A stretch of 64,000 nucleotides of DNA. Origin: an archaeon GW2011_AR18. GTDB taxonomy: Archaea; Nanobdellota; Nanobdellia; SCGC-AAA011-G17; GW2011-AR18. A program made the position numbers and the translations under genes. This document shows positions 52,840 through 55,269 of this stretch, piece after piece. The notes beneath the pieces were generated by a model. It saw nothing but the letters and a program-made list of their open reading frames with translations, had not been told where the DNA came from and did not search any database. Numbering within the stretch: the first letter of the stretch is position 1; each line of letters begins with the position of its first letter. The stretch spans positions 4,446-68,445 of the forward strand of contig JWKX01000006.1 of the NCBI GenBank assembly GCA_000806155.1. The letters are read 5' to 3'.

Positions 52840-55269
52840 TTACCTTAATCTTATTGTCTCTAAGTTTTTAGGTGCTACTGTCTCTACTCTGTTCTGTTGA
52901 TATATTACTGAAGCTAATTCTATACATCTTGAATAATCTCCGTGTATTGTTATGAATTTTTTAGGTTTTGGTTCCATATTTCTTACCCATGCTGTTAATT
53001 GCTTGAAATTTGAATGTCCGGAAAATCCAGATAGTGTATATATCGGCAGATTTATTTTTATTGTCTCCATTCTTTTAGATCCGCCATATGTGAATGTTAA
53101 TTCTTTCTCTCCATCTTGTAATCTTCTTCCTATGCTTCCTACTCCCTGATATGATGTTAATACTACACAATTTTTTGGATTCTCTGCAAATGCTTTTAAA
53201 TATTCTAATGATGGTCCTCCTTGTAGCATTCCTGATGTTGCCATTACTATATATGGTCCCTTTCCCTCTTTGATTTCTGTCATCTCTTTCTGTGATATTA
53301 CTTTCTTGAATATTGGACTTAGGAATGGATTATGATCACGTTGGAATATCCCTTTCTTTACTCTGTTGCTTAAGAAGTCAGGATATGCTGTATGTAATGC
53401 AGTTACATCCCATACCATTCCTTGCACATATATCGGCATTTCTGGTATCTTCTTTTCCACCATTGCTCTCTCTAATATTAACATGCACTCTTGTGATCTT
53501 CCTACCCCTAATACAGGCATCAATATTTTTCCTCCAGCTAGTGCTGTCTCATTTATTATTCTTATTAATTCATCCTCGCTCTCTTTTCTTGATGGACTAT
53601 TATCTGCTTTTGTTCCGTATGTTGATTCCATCATTACTGATTCTACTCTTGGGAATTTATCTATTGCAGAACTTAATAAATTTGATGTCTCATAATTGAA
53701 ATCCCCTGTATACAAAAAGTTATGTGCTCCGTTTCCTATATGTAAATGCACCATTGCACTTCCTAGATTATGTCCTGCATTATATAATGTCAATCTCATA
53801 TCAGGAGTTATGTCTGAAACCTCTTCATAGTCTAGGCATATTGTATGCTTTACCATTTCTTTTACATCTCCAGTATCATACAATGGATCATTTCCTTCTT
53901 TCATTGCTATATCACTCATATCTAGACATAATAATGCTGCTACATCTCTTGTCGGTGCTGTGCAATAAACAGGCCCTCTATATCCCATTTTATAGAGATA
54001 AGGTAAAGTGCCGCAATTATGTACTAATATTCCATTTGCAATAAAGTTACTATTATTCGCGACTTTTATATCTACAAGATATTCATATGGATTGTCATAA
54101 ACTTCTATTTCACTAATTTTATAATACGACAAGTCCATATTTTCAAAAAAGCTTTTTCTTTCATGAGTTTCATTAAGTCCTAATATTTCTAAATTTTTAT
54201 TTATCACCTGACATGTTATGGTATTATTTATTTCATCTAATGAAATATTATTTATTGGGATTATCATTCCAACTTTAAGGTCTTTAGCCTCTAATTCCTT
54301 GATTTCCATGTTTTCAATTACAAAGAATTTATGGTTTGGCGAAGCTTCTATGGTATTATAAGGTGTTTTGATATTTATTATTTTTTTATGTGTATATGTT
54401 CTTACTTTTTCTAAACATTCATTTATCTCTTTTTTTCCTGTTTTCAAGTTTATTGTCAATATTTTATCACCTCTATCAATATTATCTATGGGTTTTAATA
54501 TCCCATTTTCCAATTCAACAAGTGTGTCTGCAGGTAAGCAATGGTCTATGTGCGGATGACTTAATATTACTGCATCTAATTCCTGTATATTGAATTCTGG
54601 TACATCTAGATATGGAAAAGCATACTCTCTTGGTGCTGCTACATTAAATCCGCAGTCTAGCATTACTGTTGATTCTGGTGTCTGTATTAGGAAACAGCTT
54701 CTTCCTACTTCCCTTGCAGAACCTAGACATGTCATTCTTACCCATTCATCTCTTTTTGTCTTTGTCCATCCTTCATAGATTCTCTTTCCTACTTTATGTA
54801 AAAATTTTCTTCTGTATTCTGAATTATCATATAATACCTGTCTTATGTTCTCTAATAATTGTGATCTTATTGGTGGTATTCTTCTTACTATAGGTGTCCA
54901 TAATGTCTGGTTTTTTATCTCTTTTAATATCTCTCCCCCTTTTCCTATTGCTATTCCTGGTTTTTCAGCCTCTATTATTACTCTTGACCTGAATGTATCG
55001 AATATTATCTCTGTCTCTCCTGCATCTGCAGGTATTGTTTTCTTGATTAATTCTTTTGTATCTTCTATATCTTTTACTATTGAAGGATCTGCTCTTAACT
55101 CAACTCTTTTTTTTATATTCTCTACTATAGTTTTTATAACACCTTGATTGTCTAGTAAGAATTTCTTGTTCTTTGTATAAAGGACTATGTTTGCGCCCTC
55201 AAATACTGCTTCTGTTATATTCGCATCTTGCGGCAAATACTTGTTTACTTCATCAATTATCTTTACCAT
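52840..55269 (-). CDS. aCPSF1 (KH-domain/beta-CASP metallo-beta-lactamase RNase), intein-containing
   Basis: N-terminal KH region ([11 protein letters not shown]), MBL and beta-CASP domains. HxHxDH motif LSHPHIDH is interrupted before CG. Confidence 0.9.
   Translation of the reverse strand: [809 protein letters not shown]
54016..54540 (-). other. Mini-intein (175 aa, Hint domain only) inside aCPSF1
   Basis: [10 protein letters not shown] (block A). NTIEASPNH (block B T..H). [13 protein letters not shown] followed by extein C (blocks F/G). Flanked by HIDH | CGTLPYLY. Confidence 0.8.

Follow-up and report, generated by a model that had tools for sequence, protein, structure and literature searches.

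How can an essential nuclease work when 175 amino acids (aa) are lodged inside the motif that forms its active site? This question is raised by one gene in the stretch of DNA analyzed here (the window), 64,000 nucleotides on contig JWKX01000006.1 of Woesearchaeota archaeon GW2011_AR18. The gene encodes aCPSF1/FttA, the archaeal general transcription-termination nuclease and RNA-cleavage factor, an essential protein homologous to eukaryotic CPSF73. The answer proposed is that the insert is, with high probability, a class-1 mini-intein without an endonuclease. Inteins are well understood, and they are typically found in places such as the catalytic motif of an essential protein. A preliminary description, made from the letters of the DNA, had already read the insert as an intein in the HxHxDH-CG motif of aCPSF1 (here and below, a hyphen in a motif marks the insertion point). 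Profiles, fold, and catalytic residues agree with that reading, and the coordinates it gave, 54016 to 54540, are exact, with the feature lying on the minus strand.

An Insertion That Splits a Metal-Binding Motif

The identity of the host can be settled first. The protein matches the NCBIfam equivalog TIGR03675 (aCPSF1) with 816.7 bits against a cutoff of 580.2, and Pfam recognizes KH_TffA, KH_2, Lactamase_B, Beta-Casp, and RMMBL, i.e., the domain order KH-KH, metallo-beta-lactamase (MBL), beta-CASP, RMMBL. The equivalog match and the domain architecture together identify it as aCPSF1. Its best matches in the PDB are the aCPSF1 structures 2ycb, 2xr1, and 3af5 and the Thermococcus FttA 9bct (E 2e-190 to 7e-179). 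A six-frame search of the open reading frames (ORFs) finds this single aCPSF1 gene in the window. The insert divides the host into two exteins, the first carrying MBL motifs 1 and 2 and the second carrying motifs 3 and 4 together with the beta-CASP and RMMBL domains.

The boundaries of the insert are sharp. It is flanked by LSHPHIDH on the N-terminal side and by CGTLPYLY on the C-terminal side; the plus-strand translation of the interval is riddled with stops, and the minus strand is open for all 175 aa. Alignments to the PDB structures break into two abutting pieces, in which H243 of the query pairs with H247 of 2ycb and C419 with S248. Once residues 244-418 are removed, the precursor measures 634 aa, which is the modal ortholog length: 85 of the 120 best homologs have 600-650 aa (about 634) and no intein domain. 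The closest ortholog, P0007, whose exteins are 94% identical in protein and 89% in nucleotide sequence, has no insert at this site, and P0011 (84% identical) likewise reads HPHIDH-CG(T/S)LPYLY without interruption. Counted in DNA, the insert in the window amounts to exactly 525 in-frame bases between ...ATAGACCAT and TGCGGCACT..., and the empty site of this insertion point reads ...CATCCGCACATAGACCAT directly joined to TGCGGCACTTTACCTTAT... Comparison with orthologs had been proposed in the preliminary description as the way to verify a clean insertion, and the 175 aa are indeed not shared by them. An in-frame insertion in a conserved host, absent from orthologs and with intact flanks, is what a class-1 intein should look like. 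The insertion point is called site a in what follows. The residue at -1, the last His of HxHxDH, is a zinc ligand in beta-CASP nucleases.

Could the interrupted gene be an assembly artefact or an accident? This was ruled out, because the exact protein recurs on 26 contigs from several sources. It is identical to KHO54156.1 ("hypothetical protein", archaeon GW2011_AR18), and other records name it "MBL fold metallo-hydrolase" of Candidatus Woesearchaeota archaeon. The base composition was also considered: the intein has a GC (guanine plus cytosine) content of 25.7%, the exteins 34.2%, and the window 29.5%. As a sign of recent transfer, the low value of the intein was rejected as uninformative, because weaker constraint in an AT-rich genome gives the same result.

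Splicing Domain and Catalytic Residues

What kind of domain is the insert? Taken alone, it matches the Pfam family PF14890 (Intein_splicing) with 68.7 bits (cutoff 35.8, E 6e-19), and the profiles TIGR01445 (intein_Nterm) and TIGR01443 (intein_Cterm) score 26.0 and 24.1, above cutoffs of 24.5 and 15.6, respectively. An AlphaFold model, computed from an alignment of four mini-intein sequences, has an all-beta HINT core with a mean predicted local distance difference test score (pLDDT) of 79. When this model was compared with the PDB by Foldseek, the top 50 matches comprised only inteins, Hedgehog autoprocessing domains, or bacterial intein-like (BIL) domains, the best being 6rpq (E 2e-9, template modeling (TM) score 0.72). 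Curated profiles and fold thus both identify a HINT domain, and the profile scan suggested in the preliminary description gives the outcome it had anticipated.

A HINT domain is not always an intein, and a BIL or Hedgehog-type domain would cleave and not ligate. Foldseek does match the Hedgehog structure 1at0 and the BIL structures 6y75 and 2lwy at scores similar to those of inteins, and there are weak matches to the Pfam families Hint and PT-HINT. These matches, however, stay below their own cutoffs (21.2 versus 29.7 for Hint and 20.8 versus 27.7 for PT-HINT, with Vint also below), while Intein_splicing is above its own. Moreover, the insert sits inside a conserved enzyme, with its HN-C junction within the MBL active site; in every host of the family the element ends in His-Asn followed by Cys or Ser, and cleavage without ligation would destroy aCPSF1. 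A non-intein Hint domain is therefore scarcely credible here.

The residues required by an intein are all in place (Table 1). Family statistics in this section and the following ones refer to 28 site-a inteins extracted by pattern; a further one, P0046, was identified separately and brings the total to 29. The first residue of the insert is Cys, and the +1 position is also Cys. None of the 28 departs from Cys1, the His of block B, the Asp of block F, or VHN at the end, while elsewhere the Hint cores differ by 30-67%. The preliminary description had made its reading dependent on the conservation of the terminal His-Asn and of a nucleophile at +1, and both are conserved without exception in these same-site inteins. 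Block F (LVDIKV in its central part) supplies the Asp and block G (GILVHN) the His-Asn pair. A class 3 intein, which has no nucleophile at its start and relies on the block F Cys of a Trp-Cys-Thr triad, does not fit, since Cys1 is present and block F (YLVDIKV) has no Cys.

Block B needs a correction. The Thr of NTIEASPNH, to which the preliminary description had assigned the block B role, is not a block B residue; the block is S67-P-N-H70, so that the TxxH pattern is present as far as His70 is concerned, and the Thr position is occupied by Ser in the window and in nearly all family members. The S, P, and N are each conserved in at least 80% of the 28 inteins, and S67, N69, and H70 are invariant in a 16-sequence subset. 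As it is kept across the whole family, the Ser is probably a conservative and tolerated variant, judging from the alignment.

Another conserved residue, Cys42 (54415..54417, minus strand), lies outside the canonical splicing blocks and is present in at least 90% of site-a inteins. A disulfide with Cys1 is possible.

Table 1. Features of the aCPSF1/FttA locus, in coordinates of the window
Feature	Position	Strand	Basis or remark
aCPSF1/FttA precursor gene, 809 aa plus stop, intein-interrupted	52840..55269	minus	Single uninterrupted ORF
N-extein, aa 1-243, ending in MBL motif 2 HPHIDH (54541..54558)	54541..55269	minus	Aligns with 2ycb 13-247, stops at H247
Mini-intein, 175 aa, protein aa 244-418	54016..54540	minus	PF14890, TIGR01445, TIGR01443, HINT-fold model, absence from P0007 and P0011
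Cys1 (Cys244), N-terminal splicing nucleophile	54538..54540	minus	Invariant in 28/28 site-a inteins; block A spans 54502..54540
Block B SPNH, intein residues 67-70, with catalytic His; Ser replaces the usual Thr	54331..54342	minus	H70 invariant in 28
Residual linker, intein residues 101-130, at the usual position of HTH (helix-turn-helix) and LAGLIDADG domains	54151..54240	minus	pLDDT 30-39, predicted disordered
Block F EYLVDIKVA	54058..54084	minus	Asp at 54070..54072 invariant across site-a inteins
Block G, ending in penultimate His and terminal Asn (54016..54021)	54016..54045	minus	VHN invariant
+1 Cys (Cys419), first C-extein residue, second splicing nucleophile	54013..54015	minus	Cys/Ser in 28/28 site-a hosts
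C-extein, aa 419-809 plus stop: rest of MBL (motifs 3-4), beta-CASP, RMMBL	52840..54015	minus	Aligns with 2ycb 248-635; Pfam Beta-Casp, RMMBL
Proteasome beta-subunit gene (context, not part of the intein)	55300..55980	minus	ORF; PF00227 called on the neighboring gene in L001, L082, and L083

Proposed Route from Precursor to Enzyme

With these residues, how would the host enzyme be produced? The gene would be translated as an 809-aa precursor in which the MBL active site is broken after the final His of HxHxDH, with the next Cys on the far side of the intein. The intein would then fold into its HINT domain and excise itself by the standard four steps: an N-S acyl shift at His243-Cys244, a trans-thioesterification to Cys419, the cyclization of Asn418, aided by His417 and by the block F Asp, and an S-N shift that would restore the peptide bond. 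The expected products are a 634-aa enzyme with the same junction as its intein-free relatives and a free intein of 20 kDa. The unspliced precursor should be catalytically dead, because the -1 His is a zinc ligand.

A Family of Inteins at the Same Site

Inteins at site a occur in 29 of the 120 best homologs, and all of them start with CL(P/A/H)P and end in VHN. They come in three size classes: 175-179 aa (the window protein, P0004, P0005, P0006, and P0008), 315 aa (P0035), and 505-586 aa, the last all having precomputed LAGLIDADG_3 matches, some together with an HTH match. When the intein alone was used as a query, a word-index homolog search returned one 96-aa fragment; the family was consequently drawn from searches with the full protein and from an exhaustive HMMER search, which found 283 cluster representatives at E <= 0.001, the top six being aCPSF1 proteins or fragments.

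The residue that follows HxHxDH is informative. Among the 28 hosts, 13 have Cys there and 15 have Ser, while the equivalent residue in 88 intein-free orthologs is C in 29, V in 28, I in 12, S in 12, M in 3, L in 2, T in 1, and G in 1. Cys, Ser, or Thr is therefore found at +1 in 28/28 hosts versus 42/88 intein-free orthologs (Fisher p = 6e-8). The nucleophile is thus obligatory only when the intein is present: all hosts have Cys or Ser, and Val or Ile is frequent in orthologs that carry no intein. Right after the motif, about half of these orthologs (among P0011-P0121) have Val, Ile, Met, or Leu; such alleles would be effectively immune to fixing a site-a intein, because splicing would be unsupported and invasion lethal.

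How widespread is the element? When one genome per species was scanned, a site-a aCPSF1 intein turned up in 17 species (loci L002-L018); in each of these the match to the N-extein ends at residue 244, at the start of the intein. The species are labeled Woesearchaeota, Nanoarchaeota, Pacearchaeota, Iainarchaeum, Aenigmatarchaeota, and Micrarchaeota, together with the Asgard Borrarchaeum and Hermodarchaeota, and four are metagenome-assembled genomes called simply "archaeon" or "uncultured archaeon". All 17 are uncultivated, and nearly all are represented by metagenome-assembled genomes. In the Asgard loci L013 (Candidatus Borrarchaeum weybense), L015, and L018 (Hermodarchaeota), the intein is full-size and starts in each case at locus position 3001; these inteins share 41-43% identity with the N-terminal half of the DPANN Hint domain. 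The sharing between DPANN and Asgard may reflect either an ancient allele or a transfer across phyla.

The occupancy of the site changes among close relatives. The clade of the window's host (100% bootstrap) contains a site-a mini-intein (the window), a 516-aa intein at a second site, site b (P0007), and no intein at all (P0011, P0012, and P0013). Such a mixture of invaded, decayed, and empty alleles in close relatives is expected of a selfish element that passes through its homing cycle. The divergence of the Hint cores correlates weakly with that of the exteins (Spearman 0.34). Mean identity among the sampled site-a inteins is 51% for the Hint core and 60% for the exteins, and 14 of 378 pairs have intein cores whose similarity exceeds that of the exteins by more than five points.

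Two independent cases concern the region of the gene around the intein. A 3.3-kb contig of 1.9x coverage (L084) is 98.6% identical in nucleotide sequence to the window over about 52478..54816, from codon ~152 of the gene to 360 nt past it, intein included, and cannot be aligned upstream. In a similar way, P0005 and P0008 are 55-58% identical in their first ~180 aa and ~100% afterwards, again intein included. These patterns, with their divergent KH region, may come from recombination at the KH/MBL boundary or from chimeric metagenome assembly.

Loss of the Endonuclease

Where does the small size of the element come from? The 175-aa insert has no LAGLIDADG or HTH match in Pfam, as expected of a mini-intein. 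The full-size inteins at site a (P0003 with 586 aa, P0009 with 585 aa, P0010 with 570 aa; loci L002-L018) share with it the insertion between HxHxDH and Cys or Ser, the CL(P)P start, the SPNH block B, and the NF(I/V)ANG(I/V)VVHN end. They differ by ~400 extra residues that include an HTH domain and two LAGLIDADG motifs with the acidic residues kept, all of which the window copy is without; because these are retained, the full-size forms are potentially mobile. Mini-inteins are 60-66% identical to P0003, P0009, and P0010 over the first ~100 and the last ~50 residues, and the ~400 aa missing between these two parts correspond to the HTH domain and both LAGLIDADG motifs (GYI(T/A)GDG and FADA(E/D)G). 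The deletion falls at the canonical position of endonuclease insertion in inteins. The residual linker stands opposite this gap and is poorly conserved among the mini-inteins.

The window element is best described as a degenerate descendant of a homing intein, because it matches the full-size inteins minus the ~400-aa endonuclease region. Its ancestor would have been an intein of 570-586 aa with HTH and LAGLIDADG domains that homed into the site and subsequently lost ~400 aa at the endonuclease position. The view that it is a Hint-only element, advanced in the preliminary description on the basis of its length, is thus borne out. As the endonuclease is lost, the intein should no longer home by itself, and it would spread only vertically or by recombination of alleles. 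It probably persists because the active site that it occupies is essential, so that no deletion short of a perfectly precise one would be viable.

Did decay go further, leaving a former intein that no longer splices, so that the 809-aa protein works with an extra domain or is a pseudogene? The loss of the endonuclease is a form of decay, and the Ser in place of Thr in block B could be taken in the same sense. Against this, all the residues for the four steps are present and invariant in 28 homologs, while the linker varies freely. In addition, with 175 aa wedged between neighboring residues of the zinc site, catalysis would very likely be lost in a protein considered essential. The ORF has no disruption, is found abundantly in different samples, and hardly changes among the variants of the population. 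A dead relic is accordingly very unlikely.

A class-1 mini-intein remains the preferred explanation, and a few points weigh against it or against parts of it. That splicing takes place we infer from catalytic competence. The block B Ser departs from the canonical Thr. Of the five models of the fold, one was good, and the alignment behind it comprised four sequences. With regard to history, the mini-intein P0004 groups with the full-size P0009 (96% bootstrap), with the exteins matching; the linkers of the mini-inteins, by contrast, are of almost equal length and resemble one another weakly. This pattern can be explained either by independent losses of the endonuclease or by recombination between mini and full-size alleles. 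Finally, a regulatory role keeps a small share of the probability.

Is the Intein Kept for a Purpose?

This last point deserves discussion, since it would extend the intein reading and not replace it. Could the element be kept for conditional splicing, responsive to zinc or to the redox state, that gates an active termination factor? Zinc inhibition and disulfide traps between Cys1 and Cys+1 are documented for other inteins. Here, the intein immediately adjoins a metal-ligand motif and has a Cys at each junction, Cys42 is conserved in the family as described above, and the allele is widespread and old, as indicated by a divergence of the Hint core beyond that of the exteins and by the same site being used in DPANN and Asgard archaea. 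On the other hand, close relatives without the intein manage without it, and in half of the hosts the +1 residue is Ser; for these two reasons, a required Cys-Cys redox switch is disfavored. The patchy distribution is also what a selfish element produces. Taken together, a conditional or regulatory intein is unlikely, and its more elaborate form, in which the intein is kept as a post-translational switch whose zinc- or redox-dependent splicing gates the maturation of the termination nuclease in small-genome archaea, is distinctly unlikely. The mini-intein more plausibly has no role beyond its own persistence.

Relation to Known Inteins and to a Second Site

The nearest solved structures, by sequence (E 5e-7) as well as by fold (as given above for 6rpq), are the CDC21-1 (MCM) inteins of Pyrococcus horikoshii and P. 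abyssi (6rpq and 6rpp). They share with the window intein the class-1 catalytic residues and a near-identical block G, NFIANGI(F/L)VHN. They differ in their host, an MCM helicase, and in an overall identity of ~22%, and the window intein keeps a 30-aa disordered linker. The TFIIB mini-inteins of Methanocaldococcus (5o9i and 5o9j) offer another parallel, as natural archaeal mini-inteins with a HINT fold in a core transcription factor; in this case the host and the site are unrelated, and sequence similarity is low (E 0.06-0.08).

The aCPSF1 protein has a second intein site, site b, occupied in P0007, P0025, P0055, and P0061 (locus L082, gene 1268-4720). It reads HNFLY-TGDF and lies two residues before the Asp of motif 4 (TGD); the equivalent position in the window follows precursor aa 520, at about 53709/53710. 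The window gene is empty at b, and P0007 is occupied at b and empty at a. The site-b inteins resemble the site-a element in having the same host, in adjoining a metal-binding motif, and in ending in HN followed by Thr or Ser. They differ in lying 102 residues downstream, in starting with Ser, in their length of 513-516 aa with two LAGLIDADG motifs, and in an unrelated sequence.

Neighboring and Other Genes in the Window

Upstream of aCPSF1, at a distance of 30 bp and in the same orientation, is the gene for the proteasome beta subunit, and this pairing is kept in the relatives L082 and L083. No second intein was found in the window when its six-frame ORFs were compared with a profile from 307 intein segments (next-best E 0.32), and no free-standing LAGLIDADG endonuclease appeared among 20 window ORFs scanned with Pfam, mostly the largest ones plus three small neighbors of aCPSF1.

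Five large ORFs have no Pfam family at E <= 1e-5: 44486..47827 (minus, 1113 aa), 47979..49706 (minus, 575 aa), 49795..51300 (plus, 501 aa), 9850..11061 (minus, 403 aa), and 11042..12139 (minus, 365 aa). Of these, three lie together shortly downstream of the aCPSF1 neighborhood. Elsewhere in the window, this small AT-rich archaeal genome (29.5% GC) encodes a full-length serpin (26818..27831, plus, 360 bits) and, at 23525..25570 (plus), a protein of 681 aa that contains a DndB-like domain.

Novelty and Significance

Has such an intein been described before? The preliminary description did not know CPSF as a classical intein host, and the literature agrees as far as it was searched: no searchable paper pairs inteins with aCPSF1 or FttA, and none describes an intein in a beta-CASP nuclease. 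The main text of a 2016 survey of intein hosts mentions no such protein, which does not prove its absence from the supplementary tables, and a review on Thermococcales describes no aCPSF1 intein. Automatic pipelines already flag the family, through precomputed Pfam matches and through names such as "predicted metal-dependent RNase/intein/homing endonuclease" (JGI) and, for other members, "LAGLIDADG family homing endonuclease" (NCBI). It is an ordinary kind of intein in a host apparently not described before.

A practical consequence concerns annotation. The public names of these 800-1200-aa proteins ("MBL fold metallo-hydrolase", "hypothetical protein", "LAGLIDADG family homing endonuclease") hide a core transcription factor. 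A small natural intein with Cys at position 1 and at +1 might also serve as a scaffold for protein engineering.

As for the biology of these archaea, the allele is common in uncultivated DPANN and Asgard lineages, and aCPSF1 has at least two intein sites, both beside metal-binding motifs. Every stage of the homing cycle, i.e., full-size, mini, and empty, is present, which makes this family a convenient natural series for following how an intein loses its endonuclease.

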